DNA of 64,000 bases from an uncultured Bacilli bacterium. GTDB lineage: Bacteria > Bacillota_I > Bacilli_A > RF39 > UBA660. The DNA is taken from the NCBI GenBank assembly GCA_944332675.1, contig CALVKJ010000001.1:5235-69234 (forward strand). The letters run 5' to 3'. The position numbers were made by a program, and so were the translations under genes. The notes beneath the pieces were generated by a model that did no database searches, had not been told where the DNA came from, and saw only the letters and a program-made list of their open reading frames with translations. Shown in pieces: positions 30,005 to 41,013 of this stretch; the first letter of the stretch is position 1; every line of letters begins with the position of its first letter.

Positions 30005-30553
30005 TTAAAATATTATAAATGAACAGATAATATCTATTATTAAGACAACTAGTAAAAAATAAAATATTATATTTCTAGTTTTATCATTTAATTTATTTAA
30101 TAATTTAGTAAATAATGGCTCTAAAATGTATAAGAAAATTACTCCACCAATACCAAAACGAATACTAGGGCTTAAGGCTATTCTTGCTTCAAAATTATAT
30201 TTGTAGTCGGCATAAGTTTGCCAAGGCCAAGACCCAGTAAAGTATTCACAAATATAAGATGTTAAAAGTTCTAGTAAAGTTGCAACAACCATACAACCTA
30301 AGAAAACGATAGGAATATATAACAACTTTTTCTTAAGTGGTTTATCTTTAATTAATTTATTAAAACAAAGAATAAATGCTAAGGCCCCAAACCCATAAAC
30401 AGGTAAATATGGTCCAAATAAAACACCACGATTAGAAAATCCCCATTTATAAACTACCACTTCTAGAAATACTTCATAGAGCCAACCGATAAAAGCAAAA
30501 AGCATAAATAATAAAAATAAATTTTGAACTTTTTTCATATTACACACAAGCAT
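30005..30553 (-). CDS. polytopic membrane protein, unknown function
   Basis: 4-5 TM helices; start overlaps holA. Confidence 0.45.
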   Translation of the reverse strand: MLVCNMKKVQNLFLLFMLFAFIGWLYEVFLEVVVYKWGFSNRGVLFGPYLPVYGFGALAFILCFNKLIKDKPLKKKLLYIPIVFLGCMVVATLLELLTSYICEYFTGSWPWQTYADYKYNFEARIALSPSIRFGIGGVIFLYILEPLFTKLLNKLNDKTRNIIFYFLLVVLIIDIICSFIIF

Positions 30554-31478
30554 CTAATAAAAATCCGTACAAAGCTGTATCTTTATCCCACAAACCTTTC
30601 TTAATATTCATATCAATATTACATAAATCTACTAAGTTTTTAAGTAGTTCACTCTCACTATAATGAATTCCATTATTATATAATTTATTTACTTGCCAAT
30701 CTGCTAAACTTAAATTGCTGCAAATTTCACTTAAACTAATTTTATTTTGATACATTTTCTTGACATAATACATAAGACGATATTCTCTAGCTAAAAGGAC
30801 TGTTAAAACTGTTGCATCAACTTTATATACCTTTAAACTATTTAATATTTTTAAAGCGACATCAAGTTTTTTAGAAACAACCGCTTCAACAAAATGAAAA
30901 TTGTTATTATCAAGTTCAGTTCCTACAATTGCTACTACATCTTGATATTTAATGCGACACGGGAAATTATAATAAAGCATTATTTTATCTATTTCATTAA
31001 ACATAATATCCAAATTACTATATGAATTATTAATTATATAACTAACAGTTTCCCAATCTATATCAAAATCTTGTTCTTTAACATAATTGGTAAGTAAAGA
31101 ATTAATTGTTTTCTTATCCATTTTAGGTGTATTAATGATTTTATATTTACTTTTTAATTCTTTAACTATTTTTTTTCTGGAATCAATCGGTTTTAATGTC
31201 GTAAATATGATTATAGTATTTGGGTTAGGATTATTAAAATAATTGATTAATGAGTTTGTTATGTTATCATCTAATTTTTCGCTACCAAATATATCTGCAT
31301 TAGTTACTACCAGATACTTTTTATTATTATCTAACGAAAAATACGAAGCTTCTTCTAATACTTCTTTGATACTACTTTTATTTAAATTAAAAGTTTCATA
31401 ATTGTTATCTCTCACTATTTTTTTTATTTCTTTATCAATAAGCCTAAAACTTTCATTACTGATTAAATATATATTCAT
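30540..31478 (-). CDS. holA: DNA polymerase III delta subunit
   Basis: HolA-like N-terminus and size (312 aa); conserved position downstream of comEC, as in Bacillus. Confidence 0.7.
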   Translation of the reverse strand: MNIYLISNESFRLIDKEIKKIVRDNNYETFNLNKSSIKEVLEEASYFSLDNNKKYLVVTNADIFGSEKLDDNITNSLINYFNNPNPNTIIIFTTLKPIDSRKKIVKELKSKYKIINTPKMDKKTINSLLTNYVKEQDFDIDWETVSYIINNSYSNLDIMFNEIDKIMLYYNFPCRIKYQDVVAIVGTELDNNNFHFVEAVVSKKLDVALKILNSLKVYKVDATVLTVLLAREYRLMYYVKKMYQNKISLSEICSNLSLADWQVNKLYNNGIHYSESELLKNLVDLCNIDMNIKKGLWDKDTALYGFLLDACV

Positions 31479-31527
31479 ATTTACTACCTCATTACATTTA
31501 TTTTACTATAATTTTTAGCATAAGAAA

Positions 31528-31543
31528 AGAGAATCTCTTCTCT
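31528..31543 (-). terminator. weak hairpin terminator after the tandem nuclease genes
   Basis: agagaa-tctc-ttctct hairpin followed on the minus strand by tttctt. Confidence 0.3.
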
Positions 31544-31613
31544 ATCTATAAAAACATTATATAATGTATTATATTTTATGGGTAATATATTATATTGTGA
31601 AGGTAAAGTATTA

Positions 31614-32495
31614 TTACATTAGTTTATATTCTTTAGCTAATATTCTGGAGTCGCTGCAATATTCCATTATAAATTCATTATTCTTCTTACATATGATAAT
31701 TCCTATAGTTTTATCTTGCGTTACTGTTTTTAAGTTCTTATCTATGTAATTCATATAAACTTCTATTTGACCAATGTGTTCCTTTTTTAATTCAGTTACT
31801 TTTAGTTCTACTACTACGTAACAATTAAACTTAATATTATAAAGAAGTATATCGATGAAATTATAAGTATTACCTATTTTTATTTTGTATTCGTTTTTAA
31901 CAAAAGTAAAGCCCTCACCCAATTCATCTAAAAAAGATGGAAGATCTTCAAGTATAACTTTTTGTAATGCTTTCTCGGAAATTATTTCTTTATTGGTATT
32001 ATTTTTAATAACAATAGGATTTTTAATAAAATCAGCTACTGTAGTCTCTTTTTCATCTATTAACTTTTCTTTAGTAATATCATCTAATCTTTCGTATTCT
32101 TTATTTTTAATTCGTTCACGAAGTTGTCTAACGGATAAATTATGTTCAATAATTAATTTAGTATAAAAATTTATTTTATTATCATCTTTTATTGTTATGA
32201 GAGTTCTATAATGACTCCACCTTAATTGGTCACACACCGTGTGACTTTTTGAAAAAATAAAAAATTGCCGCATTAATTTTAAATTGGTAGCAGTGTATCC
32301 TTTACCAAGTTCACTCGTCAATTTTTTAGAATATTCTTTTATAATACCTTCACCATAATGTTTACCGGCTTCACTTAACAGTTTACCAACATTATAATAA
32401 GTAGTTAAATCACTTTTATTTTTACTATAATCTTTTACTTTTTTAGTTATTTCATTATTTATTAATTCGTTTTTTATTTCTTTATAATAATTCAT
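31614..32495 (-). CDS. YhcG/DUF1016-family PD-(D/E)XK nuclease paralog C
   Basis: DUF1016_N-like region (GKGYTATNLKLMRQFF) and a C-terminal PD-(D/E)XK core (IDILLYN...VVVELKVTELKKEHIGQIEVYMNY); SD GGAGG upstream. Confidence 0.8.
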   Translation of the reverse strand: MNYYKEIKNELINNEITKKVKDYSKNKSDLTTYYNVGKLLSEAGKHYGEGIIKEYSKKLTSELGKGYTATNLKLMRQFFIFSKSHTVCDQLRWSHYRTLITIKDDNKINFYTKLIIEHNLSVRQLRERIKNKEYERLDDITKEKLIDEKETTVADFIKNPIVIKNNTNKEIISEKALQKVILEDLPSFLDELGEGFTFVKNEYKIKIGNTYNFIDILLYNIKFNCYVVVELKVTELKKEHIGQIEVYMNYIDKNLKTVTQDKTIGIIICKKNNEFIMEYCSDSRILAKEYKLM

Positions 32496-32502
32496 AAACC
32501 TC

Positions 32503-33393
32503 CTATACTAGTTTATATTCTTTAGCTAATATCCTAGAATCACTACAATATTCCATTATGAATTTGTTATCCTTTTTACATATGATAATTCCTATAGTTT
32601 TATCTTGAGTTATTGTTCTTAAGTTCTTATCTATGTAATTCATATATACCTCTATTTGACCAATATGTTCCTTTTTTAATTCTGTTACCTTTAGTTCTAC
32701 TACTACGTAACAATTAAACTTAATATTATAAAGAAGTATATCGATGAAATTATAAGTATTACCTATTTTTATTTTGTATTCACTGGCAATATAACTAAAT
32801 GAATCACCTAATTCCTTTAAAAATGAATCTAAATCTTCCAAAATAAGTCTGTGCAAAACTTTTTCAGAAATTATTTCTTTATTGGTATTATTTTTGATAA
32901 GTAAAGGATTTTTAATAAAATCCGTAACTGATGTAGAAGATTTAGTTATTAATTTGCTTTTTATAGAATCATCTAATCTTTCATATTCTTTACTTTTTAT
33001 TCGTTCTCGTAACTGTCTTACCGACAAATTTTGTTCAATGCCTATTCTTATATAATAATTAACTTCGTCAATATTATCTATAGATAACAATTCGCTATAA
33101 TGGCTCCAAGTCAATTGTGTCGACACTGTCGACACTTTTTCATTACTAAATAATAAAAAGAATTGTCTAAATCTAAATAAAGTTCTTGCAGTATATCTTA
33201 AACCTAGCTCAACAGTTAATCTTTTAGAATACTCTCTAATAATACCTTCACCATAATGTTTGCCAGCTTCACTTAACAGCTTACCAACATTGTAATATGT
33301 AGTTAGATCGCTTTTATTTTTACTATAATCTTTTACTCTTTTAGTTATTTCATTATTTATTAATTCATTTTTTATTTCTTTATAATAATTCAT
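32503..33393 (-). CDS. YhcG/DUF1016-family PD-(D/E)XK nuclease paralog B
   Basis: Same architecture; first ~55 aa and last ~110 aa near-identical to paralogs A and C, central region divergent. Confidence 0.8.
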   Translation of the reverse strand: MNYYKEIKNELINNEITKRVKDYSKNKSDLTTYYNVGKLLSEAGKHYGEGIIREYSKRLTVELGLRYTARTLFRFRQFFLLFSNEKVSTVSTQLTWSHYSELLSIDNIDEVNYYIRIGIEQNLSVRQLRERIKSKEYERLDDSIKSKLITKSSTSVTDFIKNPLLIKNNTNKEIISEKVLHRLILEDLDSFLKELGDSFSYIASEYKIKIGNTYNFIDILLYNIKFNCYVVVELKVTELKKEHIGQIEVYMNYIDKNLRTITQDKTIGIIICKKDNKFIMEYCSDSRILAKEYKLV

Positions 33394-33403
33394 AAACTTC
33401 TCC

Positions 33404-34288
33404 TTATACTAGCTTATATTCTTTAACTAATATTCTAGAATCACTACAATATTCCATTATGAATTTATTATTTCTTTTACATATAATAATTCCTATAGTT
33501 TTATCTTGAGTTATTGTTCTCAAGTTTTTATCTATGTAATTCATATAAACTTCTATTTGACCAATATGTTCTTTTTTTAATTCTGTTACTTTTAATTCAA
33601 CAATTACAAAACAATTATATTCATAATTATAAAGAAGCAGATCGATGTAATTATATGTATTACCTATTTTTATTTTGTATTCACTAGCAATATAACTAAA
33701 TGAATCACCTAATTCCTTTAAAAATGAATCTAAATCTTCCAAAATAAGTCTGTGCAAAACTTTTTCAGAAATTATTTCTTTATTGGTATTATTTTTGATA
33801 AGTAAAGGATTTTTAATAAAATCAGCTACTGTAGTTTCTTTTTCATCTATTAACTTTTCTTTAGTAATATCATCTAATCTTTCATATTCTTTATTTTTAA
33901 TTCGTTCACGAAGTTGTCTAACGGATAAATTTTGTTCAATACTTATTTTTATATAATAATTAATTTCATTGATATCTTCAAACCAAATTATTGCACAGTA
34001 GTGAGTAAAAGTTAAAAGGTCGGTCATTGACTGACTTTTTGAAAAAATATTATAAAATCGTCTTATATATTTAAGCTGAGTAACAGAATATCCCTTTCCA
34101 AGTTCTTTAGTTAACTTTCTAGAATATTCTTTTATAATACCTTCACCATAATGTTTACCGGCTTCACTTAACAGCTTACCAACATTATAATAAGTAGTTA
34201 AATCGCTTTTATTTTTGCTATAATCTTTTACTCTTTTAGTTATTTCATTATTTATTAATTCATTTTTTATTTCCTTATAATAATTCAT
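33404..34288 (-). CDS. YhcG/DUF1016-family PD-(D/E)XK nuclease paralog A
   Basis: Same architecture; start lies 11 nt after the comEC stop, preceded by SD GGAGG (translational coupling). Confidence 0.8.
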   Translation of the reverse strand: MNYYKEIKNELINNEITKRVKDYSKNKSDLTTYYNVGKLLSEAGKHYGEGIIKEYSRKLTKELGKGYSVTQLKYIRRFYNIFSKSQSMTDLLTFTHYCAIIWFEDINEINYYIKISIEQNLSVRQLRERIKNKEYERLDDITKEKLIDEKETTVADFIKNPLLIKNNTNKEIISEKVLHRLILEDLDSFLKELGDSFSYIASEYKIKIGNTYNYIDLLLYNYEYNCFVIVELKVTELKKEHIGQIEVYMNYIDKNLRTITQDKTIGIIICKRNNKFIMEYCSDSRILVKEYKLV

Positions 34289-34299
34289 AAACCTCCTTT

Positions 34300-36420
34300 C
34301 TACGGCATAAACGTTTTTATGCTGAATTTATCACTACTTATTTTAAATTCTATAGTTCCATCATAATCAGTTCTATAAATATTGGTACTGTTAAGTATTT
34401 CTAGAACTTCTGTATTAGGATGGTTATAGAGGTTATTTCTACCGACAGAAATTATCGAATATATAGGGTTTATATCATTAATAAAATCTAGAGATGTACT
34501 TGTCTTGCTACCGTGATGTCCAACTTTTAAAACATCTACATTTTCTAAATTATATTTTTCTAGCAAATCTTGTTCTACTTTTACACTAGCATCTCCCATA
34601 AAAAGAAAATTTATATTACCAAAATTTGTATAAGAAACTAAAGAATTATCATTTTCGTTATCGTATAAATAATCATTTAAAAAATAAAGTTTAGTAGTAG
34701 ATAAATTTATACTTTTTATATTTTGATAGTAATTAATATTTAAAGCATTTACTTTAGATATTATAGATTCTTCCAAATCATTGAGAGCATCATTATTTAA
34801 TATGACATTTGCTGTATGAATGCTTTTTAAAATATTGATGGCCTCACCTGCGTGATCATTATCACCGTGAGAAAGTATTAAGTAATCAAGGTTGGTTATA
34901 CCAATACTTTTTAAAAATTTTATCGTATTATCACTTACATTATAAGTTTTGTTACTTCTTTTCCATTCGTCAACTTCATAAGTAATCCTACCACCAGTAT
35001 CAAGCATTATAACTTCCCTTTGATGAGGTGTTATTAAAACTATATTATCTCCTTGCCCAACATCTAAAAAATAAACATAATGATTATTATCCAGTTTAGG
35101 AATAATTTTAATGATAATTAAAATAGAGATTATTGCTATTAAATATTTTTTATTCGATTTAAGTAATATTAAACATATAAATAGTAAAGCAATAAATATT
35201 ATAGAAGGCTTAGGAATATTAATAAAAAAGCAAAAATTTACAAAAAAATTATTTAAAAAATCTGTTATCGATAAAGTAAAACTTAATATGGGATTAAATA
35301 TTGGCATTATGAATGTTATAATCGCTAAAGGAAAAACAATGATCGATATCCAAGGCACAAATAACATATTAACAAGTATCGATAAAATATTTACTTCGTA
35401 ATTGATATATGCACTAATTGGTAAACTAAATAGAAAAGAAATGGTACTTAATTTAAACATTTTAACTATGTAATTGCCAGTTATTTTATCGCTATAATAA
35501 ATAATACCTCCGCAGACAGCAAAAGAATATATGAAACCCAAATCATAAATAATAAAGGGATCAAAGAGTATTAAAATAAAAGCAGTTAGCAAAAGAATTT
35601 GTAAATTAGAAAAATTAAATTTACCTATTTTATTTAGACTATTTAATATAAAAAAGTAAATAGCTCGCATTACTGCCGCCTGGAAATTGGTGATAAAACC
35701 AAAGAAAAGAAGAATACCACTTAAAATTAATAATTTGGGAATCTCTTTTAGTCGTTTTAAAAAAACATTAAATACTGCTAGTAAAACGGCAACGTGAGAA
35801 CCTGATATGGCAAGTAAATGACTTGTTCCATTAGTTTGATAATTATTATAGATATCACTGCTGATTAAAGATTTATCCCCCAAAACTAAAACTAGCAAAT
35901 ACTCATTATTATCAAGGCTGTATGCCCTTTTATATAGATAATCTTTTATTTTATCGATAAAGTTATTATCATCTATTATTTCATAACTAGCTATATCAAA
36001 CAAATAAAATATCTTTTTATTATATAAATAGTTTTTGTAATTAAAATTGTTCGGTATTGTATTATTTATTGGACTATTTAAACTACCACTTAGATAAATA
36101 GATTTTCCAATCCCAATTGTTTTTAAAAGGTATTCTTTTTCCTCTTCTGTATTAATATAATATGTAGCAATTATTTTTTCTTTTCCCGATATTTCCATTT
36201 GCAATTTATTGCCATTAATACTATATTCATCTATTTTACCATTGATTTTAGTTTCACTACCAACATATTTAGATTCATATTTGATAAAAACTGTAAAGAC
36301 AAAAACATAGATAGTTGCAAATAAAAATAAAATTATAAATAGAATATTACACCGTAATAAGAGCTTTAAATTGGTCAAATGTGGCATCGCCGATTCCGCT
36401 GACATTTTTAATTTCTTCAA
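34300..36420 (-). CDS. comEC: DNA internalization competence protein ComEC/Rec2
   Basis: Polytopic competence domain plus C-terminal metallo-beta-lactamase domain (HGDNDHAG); 706 aa. The annotated start overlaps comEA by 74 nt, so the true start may be an internal Met. Confidence 0.88.
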   Translation of the reverse strand: MKKLKMSAESAMPHLTNLKLLLRCNILFIILFLFATIYVFVFTVFIKYESKYVGSETKINGKIDEYSINGNKLQMEISGKEKIIATYYINTEEEKEYLLKTIGIGKSIYLSGSLNSPINNTIPNNFNYKNYLYNKKIFYLFDIASYEIIDDNNFIDKIKDYLYKRAYSLDNNEYLLVLVLGDKSLISSDIYNNYQTNGTSHLLAISGSHVAVLLAVFNVFLKRLKEIPKLLILSGILLFFGFITNFQAAVMRAIYFFILNSLNKIGKFNFSNLQILLLTAFILILFDPFIIYDLGFIYSFAVCGGIIYYSDKITGNYIVKMFKLSTISFLFSLPISAYINYEVNILSILVNMLFVPWISIIVFPLAIITFIMPIFNPILSFTLSITDFLNNFFVNFCFFINIPKPSIIFIALLFICLILLKSNKKYLIAIISILIIIKIIPKLDNNHYVYFLDVGQGDNIVLITPHQREVIMLDTGGRITYEVDEWKRSNKTYNVSDNTIKFLKSIGITNLDYLILSHGDNDHAGEAINILKSIHTANVILNNDALNDLEESIISKVNALNINYYQNIKSINLSTTKLYFLNDYLYDNENDNSLVSYTNFGNINFLFMGDASVKVEQDLLEKYNLENVDVLKVGHHGSKTSTSLDFINDINPIYSIISVGRNNLYNHPNTEVLEILNSTNIYRTDYDGTIEFKISSDKFSIKTFMP

Positions 36421-37024
36421 TAGCTTTAAAGAAGCCGTTTTCTTCCCGATATGAAATTATATTATTGGCTTTTGTTTCGCCGATACCTGGAAGAGTCATT
36501 AGCTCTGTTATTGAAGCGAGATTGATATTTATTAAACTAGAAGTTCCCGTATCACTATTTGTAGAATCACTTGTAATGATACTTACTTTATTTTTTAAAG
36601 CATTATCTATTTGATAATCATTATTAGAACTCGTAGTATTAGAATACGTACTATTCTGATATTCTTTTTCGGTATAGACAAAAATTACTAATTCATCAGT
36701 TACTTTCTTACTTAAATTAATGTTATCTGTGTAAGCATTATCCAAAAAACCACCAGCTAGATTGATTGCATCATTTATTAAATCTTGCTCATTCATAGCA
36801 TAAACTCCAGGATTTTGGACAGCACCTTTTACTTCAACATAAATACTTTCATTAGTTTCTTCTTCAGTATTTTCGATTTTTACTGGGCTATCTTCTAAGG
36901 CAATATTTAAGTTTTCTTCTTCGTTATTTAAGCTATAAATAATATAGGCACTTAATCCCAAAACTACTAGACTTAAAAATATCAATATACCTAAAACTAT
37001 TTGCTTTTTATTAAGTATTTTCAT
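36347..37024 (-). CDS. comEA: competence protein ComEA (DNA receptor)
   Basis: N-terminal TM anchor; C-terminal tandem helix-hairpin-helix INLASITELMTLPGIGETKANNII...NVSGIGDATFDQF. Confidence 0.85.
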   Translation of the reverse strand: MKILNKKQIVLGILIFLSLVVLGLSAYIIYSLNNEEENLNIALEDSPVKIENTEEETNESIYVEVKGAVQNPGVYAMNEQDLINDAINLAGGFLDNAYTDNINLSKKVTDELVIFVYTEKEYQNSTYSNTTSSNNDYQIDNALKNKVSIITSDSTNSDTGTSSLININLASITELMTLPGIGETKANNIISYREENGFFKAIEEIKNVSGIGDATFDQFKALITV

Positions 37025-38975: not shown

Positions 38976-39515
38976 ACAAGTTAAAGGTGTGGTAAAATCA
39001 CTTACATTGCCTAAGTAATTTATCATTATATCATCTAAAGTATTATTATTTGCAGCATCATTTTCTTCATTTATAGTATGAACTTCGATATCAATTATAA
39101 GAGTAAATATTTTATCATCGGCACTATAATAAACATTAGCTCTATTTACATAAACACTACTTTCAGCTATTTTCCATCTTCTGACATTTTCACCAGTGGA
39201 ATCAATATATGAAAATAAGGTGCTTGTAGTACTTAGATAAGAACTCGTATTATCAGAAAAGTTAAATGTAATGTTTAAAGTTTCAGAATCGCTATTATCA
39301 ACTATACTAGTTAAAACTTTATTATTTAAGTCATTGCCGATCATTCTTAAGATTTCAGCCCTATTTATTTGATTATCACGCGCATAAGTAGTGTTAGTTT
39401 CTAGATTATTTAAATCGATTAATAGTCTAATCATAAATATTAAAACTACCGATATTAAAGCTATACTAATTATTACTTCGGCTAAAGATGTTCCTTTTTT
39501 ATTTAGCATAATCAT
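38952..39515 (-). CDS. type IV pilin-like (pseudopilin) protein
   Basis: Class III signal: KKG|TSLAE with Glu at +5, followed by a hydrophobic helix VIISIALISVVLIFMI. Confidence 0.65.
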   Translation of the reverse strand: MIMLNKKGTSLAEVIISIALISVVLIFMIRLLIDLNNLETNTTYARDNQINRAEILRMIGNDLNNKVLTSIVDNSDSETLNITFNFSDNTSSYLSTTSTLFSYIDSTGENVRRWKIAESSVYVNRANVYYSADDKIFTLIIDIEVHTINEENDAANNNTLDDIMINYLGNVSDFTTPLTCLGTGCNQ

Positions 39516-40408
39516 TCCTCTATTCTATATGGTGAAGCTTGACTACCTTCACCACTTGCCAAATGTACGGTACTATTTAAATAAAATACTGGTCTAATTT
39601 GAAATGTATTTTCTACGGTACTGGAAGACAATGTTCCATTATTATTAATATAAAATGCAGTATTATGAGTAGAATTATCTCGCGAAATTGTCCAGTAACT
39701 TGTGCCATTATTTAACCAATTATCAGTCCCAGTAGCAGTTGATCCATAATTATCTTGAATTGTTCCATAACCATAATCGGATATATATAATAAAGCAATT
39801 TTGTTATTTACCCAAATATTTTTATTTTGATTATTTCCTAATTCATTTTCATAAATATTTTTTAATGTATCTGTTGCTAATGAATTAGTAATACCATTAG
39901 TATAAAAATTAGTTGTGGCAATTAAAGATGCATAAGTACTTAAGGTATTTAAATAGTTAGTATTTAAATAATTATAAATCGTCGTATTTATAAAATAGTT
40001 GGTTTCATCGGTATCAAAAGCTAAAGTAGCTACACTACTATTCGATATAAGTTTAACTTTGCCATCAATTACCCCGATTATGCGATATAAATTATTACTA
40101 GGACAAGGAGTAACAATAGTACCAAAACATACATAATTATTTGGATTTGCTCCAGTATAACGGTAAGAATTATCCCCTGCTCCATTTACTAAATCGGCAT
40201 TGTGGTGAACAAGGCCAAGTTCTTCAGCGTGATTAATTAAATAGCGGGCAAAAGTTGTATCTGATATATTCTCTTTAATTTCAGCTTTCATACTATTTAA
40301 AAGAAGACGATTGCTAACCAAATTATTGACAATAAAAAGCATAAGTAACAAAAATACAACAAAAAATGAGTAAACAACAGAAATTGATATAAATCCTTTT
40401 TTATTCAT
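39512..40408 (-). CDS. type IV pilin-like protein with a C-terminal domain shared with the 508-aa secreted protein
   Basis: Probable start MNKKGFISISVV at 40408 with SD AGGTGA; KKG|F prepilin-like N-terminus lacking Glu+5; C-terminal YRYTGANPNNYVCFG...CP..NLYRIIGVIDGKVKLI...WTISR...RPVFYL...SPY domain. Confidence 0.55.
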   Translation of the reverse strand: MNKKGFISISVVYSFFVVFLLLMLFIVNNLVSNRLLLNSMKAEIKENISDTTFARYLINHAEELGLVHHNADLVNGAGDNSYRYTGANPNNYVCFGTIVTPCPSNNLYRIIGVIDGKVKLISNSSVATLAFDTDETNYFINTTIYNYLNTNYLNTLSTYASLIATTNFYTNGITNSLATDTLKNIYENELGNNQNKNIWVNNKIALLYISDYGYGTIQDNYGSTATGTDNWLNNGTSYWTISRDNSTHNTAFYINNNGTLSSSTVENTFQIRPVFYLNSTVHLASGEGSQASPYRIEE

Positions 40409-40416
40409 ACAATCAC

Positions 40417-41013
40417 CTAAATTCCTAAAGATACATAATAAAGGTTGCATCCTTCATCAGTACCAGGAACACACCTACTAAGTCTGCCATCAACCGTATA
40501 TTCAGAATATTCTACAATTAAATAATAATTATAAGTAGTATCATTTAAAGTTTGAATATAACTATTAATAGCATAATTTAAATTAGAAGTTGATGCTTCA
40601 CATTTGGTATCATCTTTCAAATTAGTACAATTACTAAGCATATCAGAGTCCATTATTAACATTTGATTAACGCTAAAATTAGTAAAAATATTTTCCATAG
40701 TAGCTTTCATATTATTAGCGATTTGCTCACTATTAAACATCCCATCAAATTCTGGGCCGATAGTGATTATATAACTATTTTCAAAAGCATAACTTTTTAT
40801 ATTTTCTATATTAGTATTATTTTCTAGAAACTCCCTTATATAATTTGTCCGATATATATAAGCAGTATCATCATAATAAAGTCGTGTTTCTTCCCTATTG
40901 ATGATACTACTATATGTTCCATACAAATAAAGTAGTGAGGTTGACAATACAACAACAGTTATAATAGTTTCGATAATAGCAAATCCCTGTTTATTTTTTT
41001 TCATTCTCATCAT
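40417..41013 (-). CDS. type IV pilin / pseudopilin (ComGC-like)
   Basis: Canonical prepilin motif KQG|FAIIE (Gly-1, Phe+1, Glu+5) followed by a hydrophobic helix; 198 aa. Confidence 0.75.
   Translation of the reverse strand: MMRMKKNKQGFAIIETIITVVVLSTSLLYLYGTYSSIINREETRLYYDDTAYIYRTNYIREFLENNTNIENIKSYAFENSYIITIGPEFDGMFNSEQIANNMKATMENIFTNFSVNQMLIMDSDMLSNCTNLKDDTKCEASTSNLNYAINSYIQTLNDTTYNYYLIVEYSEYTVDGRLSRCVPGTDEGCNLYYVSLGI

Follow-up and report, generated by a model that had tools for sequence, protein, structure and literature searches.

A tandem array of mosaic YhcG/DUF1016-family genes in a comEC-holA hotspot of uncultured gut Bacilli

Three complete genes of the YhcG/DUF1016 family, designated A, B and C, were found in tandem between the competence gene comEC and holA in a 64,000-nt stretch of DNA from an uncultured Bacilli bacterium (hereafter the window; coordinates are window positions unless a locus label is given, and labels such as L082 denote related loci in relatives, outside the window). 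The three genes are mosaics of each other, strains of the same species carry different combinations of the same blocks, and genes of this family recur after comEC across the clade. The variability is concentrated in one block of the N-terminal domain, which is predicted to bind DNA. The reading that we favour, with a probability of about 0.5, is that the genes encode a set of restriction-like nucleases that act alone and can exchange their DNA-recognition modules; the set occupies a hotspot between comEC and holA and is probably transcribed together with the DNA-uptake genes.

Mosaic structure of the three paralogs

Paralogs A (33404-34288, 294 aa), B (32503-33393, 296 aa) and C (31614-32495, 293 aa) are full-length and lie on the minus strand, the same strand as comEC and holA, as had been reported in the first-pass annotation of this DNA. 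Each copy is complete, with its own Shine-Dalgarno sequence and ATG; the open reading frames (ORFs) are separated by 10 nt (A-B) and 7 nt (B-C), with GGAG(G) in each gap. The window harbours only these three YhcG copies.

Pairwise DNA identity among the paralogs was 80-84% and was patchy along the alignment. All pairs were 92-98% identical over nt 1-150 and ~50-65% identical over nt 150-330. After nt 330, a block shared by A and C (33837-33931 in A, 47 + 47 nt with one mismatch to C 32047-32141) is followed by a block shared by A and B (33687-33823 in A, a conversion tract of 137 nt that is 100% identical to B 32786-32922) and then by a block shared by B and C (32690-32781 in B, 92 nt, 100% identical to C 31801-31892), all on the minus strand. 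The 222 informative sites fell into 97 runs, against 146 +/- 6.9 expected by permutation, and none of 20,000 permutations gave so few runs, or a run as long as the longest one observed (35). The mosaic that had been proposed from the translations was thereby confirmed at the DNA level, and all of the peptide blocks said to be shared between pairs were present. The further claim that both ends of the proteins are nearly identical held for the first 56 residues. At the C-terminus it held for roughly the last 62 residues and not for the ~110 originally given, as residues 205-232 form a block in which B and C agree against A.

The hypervariable module begins at residue 57 in every copy. It spans aa 57-120 in A (33929-34120), where it covers the predicted recognition helix and the helices that follow, aa 57-122 in B (33028-33225) and aa 57-119 in C (32139-32327, from peptide comparison and the family alignment), again on the minus strand. 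The module of B includes a 9-nt tandem duplication at 33117-33135 (GTGTCGACA, present twice), which contains two SalI sites, encodes VSTVST and explains part of the extra length of B; it was flagged by the terminator scan on the opposite strand.

The ratio of nonsynonymous to synonymous substitution (dN/dS) among A, B and C was estimated by segment with the Nei-Gojobori method. The first 56 codons were under strong purifying selection (dN/dS 0.02-0.04, dS 0.19-0.44), and dN/dS across the constant parts was 0.02-0.06. For codons 57-120, dS was ~1.4, which is saturated, and dN/dS was 0.23-0.38. As the synonymous sites are saturated, the variable blocks are old alleles and not the product of recent bursts of substitution.

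The same division was observed across the family, in an alignment of 116 full-length YhcG sequences drawn from the window and from 80 related loci. Entropy in this alignment peaked at aa 61-120 and 141-170. The constant parts were 86-87% identical between paralogs of one array compared to 73-78% between loci, and the variable block was 48% identical within arrays, the same value as for random cross-species pairs. At 70% identity the variable blocks fell into 53 types, some of which recur across species on different backbones. In this pattern, concerted evolution of the scaffold goes together with the retention of different recognition modules.

Exchange of blocks between strains

The related locus L082 is conspecific with the window (comEC 97.8% and holA 99.4% identical) and carries the same three-gene array. 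Its first copy has a B-type 3' part where A of the window has its own type, and a patch of A type is present in its second copy. The holA-proximal copy of L086 has the backbone of C with a variable block that is 100% identical to that of A. As these chimeras differ from those of the window, blocks have moved between paralogs within the species. The ongoing gene conversion postulated in the first-pass annotation is supported by this comparison, because conspecific strains with flanks that are 98-99% identical carry different mosaics.

Disrupted YhcG copies were also observed in relatives, and frameshifted copies were frequent in the arrays of the 80 loci. The frameshift lies at an A-rich tract, AG(T/C)AAAAATAAAAG, in codons 24-28. 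In the window this tract is found at 34204-34219 in A, 33309-33324 in B and 32411-32426 in C, and all three copies are in frame; the tract is A8 in L025 (9160-9210), and one base is lost in L008 (10950-11000). These frameshifts could reflect slipped-strand on/off switching or assembly error. Reassignment of a stop codon was rejected as an explanation for the disrupted copies, as the frameshifts are followed by all three standard stop codons.

Family assignment and predicted structure

The assignment of the three proteins to the DUF1016/YhcG family of PD-(D/E)XK nucleases was upheld by Pfam matches (PF17761 and PF06250) far above the cut-offs. YhcG_C was matched with 121-125 bits (cut-off 32.5, E ~1e-35) and DUF1016_N, the N-terminal domain that precedes the nuclease, with 86-95 bits (cut-off 32.8, E ~1e-25). 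In the PADLOC search that had been suggested earlier, all three copies matched the candidate defence model PDC-S02 (E 1.4e-62, 8.3e-63 and 7.4e-67). No specific model for A, B or C was present in NCBIfam, and no Mrr model was among their Pfam matches at E <= 0.01.

The E-D-E(I/L/V)K motif of YhcG was defined by Kosinski et al. 2005 (PMC1189080). The corresponding residues E203, D216 and E231-L-K233 were intact in A, B and C, and in the 116-copy alignment E203, D216, E231, K233, Q244 and Y248 were at least 98% conserved. The preservation of this motif suggests that the copies are active nucleases.

An AlphaFold2 model of YhcG was built from 83 sequences, with a mean pLDDT (predicted local distance difference test score) of 74. 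Confidence was high over aa 31-140 and moderate over the nuclease domain, and the linker (aa 148-175) scored low. The predicted parts, which are also those of A, are a helix-turn-helix (HTH) at ~aa 25-140, a flexible, disordered linker at ~aa 148-175 and the PD-(D/E)XK domain. According to the model, the N-terminal domain is a ParB/KorB-like HTH. The fold search that led to this assignment was needed, as a sequence search of the PDB returned only a marginal match to Cas4; PD-(D/E)XK nucleases (BpuSI, NucS, Cas4 and Dna2) appeared further down the fold-search list. In a profile comparison, aa 57-131 of the family aligned in register with residues 120-194 of Bacillus subtilis Spo0J (E 0.016, weak when taken alone), with the Spo0J HTH sequence EQLAKRLGKSRPHIANHLRLL placed on aa 57-80. 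The Pfam model HTH_ParB gave a weak match in copy C, and the ParBc (N-terminal ParB/Srx CTPase) domain was not detected in the Pfam scan of the three proteins. The entropy peak of the family overlaps the HTH aligned to Spo0J, so the variable block corresponds to the predicted recognition helix and the helices after it.

Distribution of the arrays and linkage to comEC

Related loci were collected in a scan of one genome per species, which gave at least 462 confirmed stretches, and the 80 best loci were studied. By title, these were mostly uncultured gut Bacilli or Tenericutes metagenome-assembled genomes, the remaining titles being Clostridium, Erysipelotrichaceae, Muribaculaceae and unclassified. 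Homologues amounted to at least 8000 proteins for the subfamily of the window. A second subfamily (302-304 aa, ~40% identical to the first), with 4110 homologues, is also very abundant in the same clade, and its members can share an array with the subfamily of the window, as seen for the copies in L001 (8149-9057 and 9075-9983). The wider DUF1016/YhcG family comprised 6,937 clusters worldwide at 50% identity, with matches on 493 plasmids, all of the plasmid matches being less than 35% identical.

Arrays in the 80 loci contained from one to ~8 complete or partial copies, with at most 6 full-length, and the gaps between them were typically 9-13 nt. By far the commonest upstream neighbour was comEC, which preceded 20 of 76 arrays; it lay on the strand of the array in every case, at a distance of mostly 11-13 nt (range -4 to 42). 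This linkage persists where comEC is only ~40% identical to that of the window. The other neighbours were diverse (80 singleton clusters) and were mostly housekeeping genes. An independent scan started from comEC offered a less biased view: in 14 of the 24 in-clade comEC loci with readable downstream sequence, YhcG came after comEC or after an orphan comEC 3' end, and YhcG was found after comEC in none of ~50 distant comEC loci. The link to comEC, regarded as unusual in the first-pass annotation, is therefore recurrent in this clade.

From one copy (L013, L030) to at least five (L009) were present between comEC and holA. Because the slot recurs across the clade with a variable copy number, the array is lineage-wide and is not a strain-specific insert, a point that the first-pass annotation had left to a synteny comparison. 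Orthology of the comEC-linked copies was considered and was unsupported, as the nearest neighbour of a comEC-linked copy was itself comEC-linked in 10 of 23 cases.

No close relatives were found in phage records or in IMG/VR, and a prophage or phage origin was rejected for this reason. The GC content of A, B and C (0.22-0.25) is the same as that of the flanks, which, together with the lack of close phage or IMG/VR relatives, suggests that the YhcG copies are long-resident chromosomal genes.

Two kinds of neighbour deserve separate mention. In L034 (3740-4072) and L063 (9584-9979), a short SSB gene (110-131 aa) lies directly before YhcG, with gaps of 21-24 nt. Pilin-like proteins of 291-461 aa flank YhcG in L016 (8838-9905), L018 (10972-12111), L019 (10949-12220), L029 (10971-11846) and L042 (6837-8222); they carry an N-terminal KRGFTLIEL methylation motif, and some contain DUF6273. 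The genes around them have housekeeping functions (for example polC, thrS, xfp and uvdE). The window, too, encodes a DUF6273 protein at 39512-40450 (minus strand), ~5 kb upstream of comEC, in which the pilin-like N-terminus is degenerate. The pilin-like/DUF6273 proteins may be a second scattered multicopy family of the clade. A second link to competence through these N_methyl pilin-like neighbours was rejected, as they are large DUF6273 proteins amid housekeeping genes and not comG operons.

Flanking genes and transcription of the locus

The uptake operon starts with comEA (36347-37024, minus strand; ORF with Pfam SLBB and HHH_3). It is followed by comEC (34300-36420, minus strand; Pfam DUF4131, Competence and metallo-beta-lactamase), which matched TIGR00361 ComEC_Rec2 with 266 bits, above the cut-off. 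The longest comEC ORF has a TTG start and shares 74 nt with the end of comEA (36347-36420). In a conspecific contig, a later start was called for comEC, giving 695 aa, and the true start is for this reason probably an internal ATG. Paralog A begins 11 nt after the comEC stop, as previously stated; this junction (34289-34299, minus strand, AAAGGAGGTTT) runs from the comEC stop TAG to the ATG of A and contains no terminator-like site on that strand. Downstream of C lies an AT-rich spacer of 135 nt (31479-31613, minus strand) with one promoter-like site (31601-31573) and no terminator-like sites. The slot is closed by the core gene holA (30540-31478, minus strand; Pfam and TIGR01128), which encodes the delta subunit of DNA polymerase III.

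The scan found no terminator-like site on the coding strand from comEC to holA. The promoter scan yielded 60 promoter-like sites compared with 63.5 in shuffled sequence, and is uninformative at 25% GC. From the arrangement of the genes, A, B and C are probably co-transcribed with comEA and comEC. Translational coupling of A to comEC is plausible, given the 11-nt gap and the missing terminator-like site.

In B. subtilis, the gene order is comEA-comEB-comEC, and comEB encodes a dCMP deaminase. The first-pass annotation had placed the array in the position of comEB, which proved mistaken, as the YhcG genes lie after comEC and not between comEA and comEC, and no dCMP/cytidine deaminase domain was found in the Pfam scan.

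The comEC-holA slot in relatives

In the 10 of 24 in-clade comEC loci without YhcG, the slot was filled by other genes. These included Bro-N proteins matching the PADLOC candidates PDC-S13 and PDC-S05, a Bro-N-NUDIX fusion matching PDC-S07, a radical-SAM protein with weak matches to viperin models, an HD-domain protein, an HTH-CYTH protein and a DnaI-like ATPase. The comEC-holA slot is thus a variable accessory-gene hotspot in this clade.

In several relatives, orphan comEC 3' ends (aa ~518-706) were observed downstream of full-length comEC. Their start always coincides with the codons for the metal-binding motif HGDxDH, and the cargo after each of them differs (YhcG, Bro-N or HTH-CYTH). Such ends were located in L088 (7354-7926 and 10206-10778), L122 (4532-5059 and 8437-8988), L014 (9441-9989) and L078 (9422-9988), and further in L023, L079, L093, L111, L116, L125 and L149. 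An orphan end of L088 is 100% identical to the resident comEC over its first 300 nt and 71% identical over the remaining 280 nt. Immediately before the orphan ends of several loci, from different samples, lies a conserved 24-nt sequence, TTCGACTTACT(TT/AA)TTGACAATCAC. It was found in L014 (9397-9420), L088 (7330-7353 and 10182-10205), L092 (9853-9876), L023 (11485-11508), L122 (4488-4511, 6652-6675 and 8393-8416) and L149 (2091-2114). The motif contains TTGACA, 16 nt upstream of TATGAT, which falls on the DYDH codons just before an internal ATG. The TTGACA/TATGAT pair could be a near-consensus promoter, to judge by its sequence, possibly for a leaderless transcript. Neither orphan comEC ends nor the 24-nt junction motif occur in the window.

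Interpretation of the arrays

In the favoured reading, the 5' and 3' parts of the copies are kept alike by gene conversion or unequal crossing-over, which also moves internal blocks between them; the recognition-helix block is found as dozens of ancient and strongly divergent types common to several species. Through its particular HTH module, each endonuclease would be steered to a DNA sequence, or a modification context, that differs from those of the others. As the constant parts are kept compatible, A, B and C may also act as mixed oligomers. The set would form a restriction-like barrier against foreign DNA and, being probably transcribed with comEA and comEC, the nucleases would be on hand each time the cell makes its uptake machinery. 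A role in defence is in keeping with the PADLOC matches of the copies and of other occupants of the slot, and with the literature, in which DUF1016 is enriched beside the targets of programmed inversion and inside type I restriction-modification (R-M) loci, DUF1016 and RhuM/Bro-type genes being kinds that are embedded in such loci (PMC9881135); COG4804 has been counted among the restriction endonucleases in Tn7 cargo (PMC8649781).

Several observations weigh against the proposal of a restriction-like repertoire. Transformation imports single-stranded DNA, which classical restriction does not cut, so that a role of the nucleases at the uptake step is not obvious. No biochemical activity of any DUF1016/YhcG member was found in the literature, nor was a validated phage-defence phenotype for PDC-S02, which has candidate status only. 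No methyltransferase or other self-protection partner was present within ~10 kb on either side of the array in L082 or among the scanned ORFs of the window, and self-discrimination is consequently unexplained unless the enzymes are modification-dependent. The variable block gave no sign of positive selection (dN/dS < 1), a weak test given the saturated synonymous sites. In addition, most of the copies that are not linked to comEC lie amid housekeeping genes and not in recognisable defence islands.

A bolder version of the repertoire reading would make comEC itself the landing pad and promoter of a self-diversifying set of nucleases. Capture would proceed by recombination anchored in the conserved 3' part of comEC, the orphan ends would be its traces, and the cargo would comprise YhcG genes with exchangeable ParB-like modules and other defence candidates; the set, possibly as mixed oligomers, would screen foreign DNA or destroy it in cells engaged in DNA uptake. 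This version is rather unlikely. If true, it would describe a competence-coupled innate immune repertoire with cassette-type switching of specificity.

Other origins of the arrays were weighed. One is that the genes are selfish elements resembling homing endonucleases, which cleave sites that are empty or variant and gain entry there through recombinational repair, so that arrays, mosaics and scatter are by-products without benefit to the host. Copies do occur singly or arrayed amid housekeeping genes (polC, thrS, the rpoC region, ssb, ftsZ, tpiA), usually co-oriented, with no integrase or transposase near them, and the lack of monophyly among the comEC-linked copies suggests that loci have exchanged material. 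The orphan comEC 3' ends of a sister subclade, with their one precise HGDxDH boundary, also accompany YhcG and resemble repeated recombination at a conserved target. However, the copies form tandem arrays of up to ~8 complete or partial members, which to our knowledge is not a homing pattern. Purifying selection on the constant parts is strong (dN/dS as given above), the slot is occupied across a deep clade and is not patchy, and spread in viral contigs was not seen in IMG/VR. We regard a homing origin as unlikely. A role as accessory nucleases of competence, in which they would assist ComEC in handling incoming or donor DNA, for instance by breaking down imported DNA for nucleotide salvage in an auxotrophic organism with a small genome or by preparing DNA for recombination, appears quite unlikely. 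It would account for the short conserved gap after comEC on the same strand with no terminator-like site, for the linkage to comEC kept across the clade and for the two arrays that follow a short SSB gene. Housekeeping processing, though, requires neither dozens of divergent recognition modules nor a variable copy number, approximately three quarters of the arrays adjoin no competence gene, the 10 in-clade comEC loci without YhcG carry unrelated cargo instead, and the pilin-like neighbours do not belong to comG operons.

The mosaic might also be no more than the expected homogenisation of ordinary tandem duplicates, without any repertoire. Gene conversion between adjacent paralogs is common, and dN/dS was below 1 everywhere. 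Clusters of YhcG paralogs were noted long ago in Rickettsia (PMC1189080). However, only the flanks are homogenised here, the variable block being as different within arrays as between species (48%). The catalytic residues are kept across the 116 copies, the variability is concentrated on the HTH recognition region, and the two subfamilies have undergone a massive expansion in one clade. These observations make simple duplication improbable. The constant 5' end, the variable internal blocks and the unidirectional tandem order would suit an expression site with silent donor cassettes, as in pilE/pilS or vlsE, in which only the first copy after comEC is expressed; the assignment of blocks to positions differs between strains, and the arrays of relatives include frameshifted copies. 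Yet A, B and C are all full-length, none lacks a Shine-Dalgarno sequence or an ATG, the gaps between them contain no terminators, and nothing marks the downstream copies as silent. This last arrangement is very improbable.

The DUF1016/YhcG family is widespread, was predicted twenty years ago and has been seen repeatedly in R-M and defence loci. The locus described here is a natural experiment, in which a constant catalytic scaffold carries dozens of variants of the recognition module and neighbouring copies exchange them. As the variants map onto the predicted ParB-like recognition helix, DNA specificity is directly testable by module swap. The comEC-holA accessory hotspot was previously unreported and is located in an abundant, uncultured group of gut bacteria whose genomes are small. 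Its existence prompts the question whether defence and DNA uptake are linked genetically in this clade. No description of tandem mosaic YhcG arrays, of a ParB-like fold for DUF1016_N, of the linkage to comEC or of the comEC-holA hotspot was found in the literature.

Comparison with known systems

The proteins of the window share the two-domain architecture and the E-D-ExK motif of DUF1016/YhcG (PF17761 and PF06250; COG4804; Escherichia coli YhcG). They are shorter (~294 aa) than E. coli YhcG (375 aa), and they differ from the family in general as a clade-specific subfamily with extremely conserved first 56 residues, a tandem mosaic organisation and linkage to comEC. Many PDC-S02 models were matched strongly (E down to 1e-67). 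PDC-S02 is a single-gene candidate, whereas here 3 to ~8 diversified copies occupy a hotspot between core genes, which is not a typical defence island. The resemblance to ParB, Spo0J and KorB is one of fold only, as ParBc was not detected and there is no partition context.

Free-standing homing endonucleases are similar in that nuclease genes lie between conserved genes with evidence of gene conversion; the genes studied here differ by their tandem arrays, their clade-conserved slot and their absence from viral contigs. The truncated or promoterless donors of silent-cassette systems (pilE/pilS, vlsE) have no counterpart among the three complete copies. The comEC 3' fragments, which are confined to relatives, recall the orphan modules of Rhs/CDI systems, in that a full-length gene is followed by displaced 3' copies, each with different cargo. 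ComEC is not a toxin, however, and its fragments start at one fixed codon, directly preceded by the TTGACA-containing 24-nt sequence.

Among restriction systems, type II R-M enzymes have an adjacent cognate methyltransferase, a feature that is lacking here. The Mrr-like type IV enzymes are closer, as they combine a stand-alone N-terminal recognition domain with a C-terminal PD-(D/E)XK domain and have no nearby methyltransferase. The YhcG copies did not match Mrr models, and their recognition domain is a predicted ParB-like HTH in place of the N-terminal winged helix of Mrr. Phase-variable or shufflon hsdS loci of type I R-M systems, in which DUF1016 genes are often embedded (PMC9881135), are alike in the exchange of modules between adjacent paralogs, with conserved parts serving as recombination anchors. 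In contrast to hsdS loci, the array has neither an invertase nor inverted repeats, its copies are all complete and point the same way, and the diversified protein would be a nuclease and not a specificity subunit. The closest functional likeness is to Mrr-like type IV enzymes in architecture and to phase-variable hsdS loci in the shuffling of modules.

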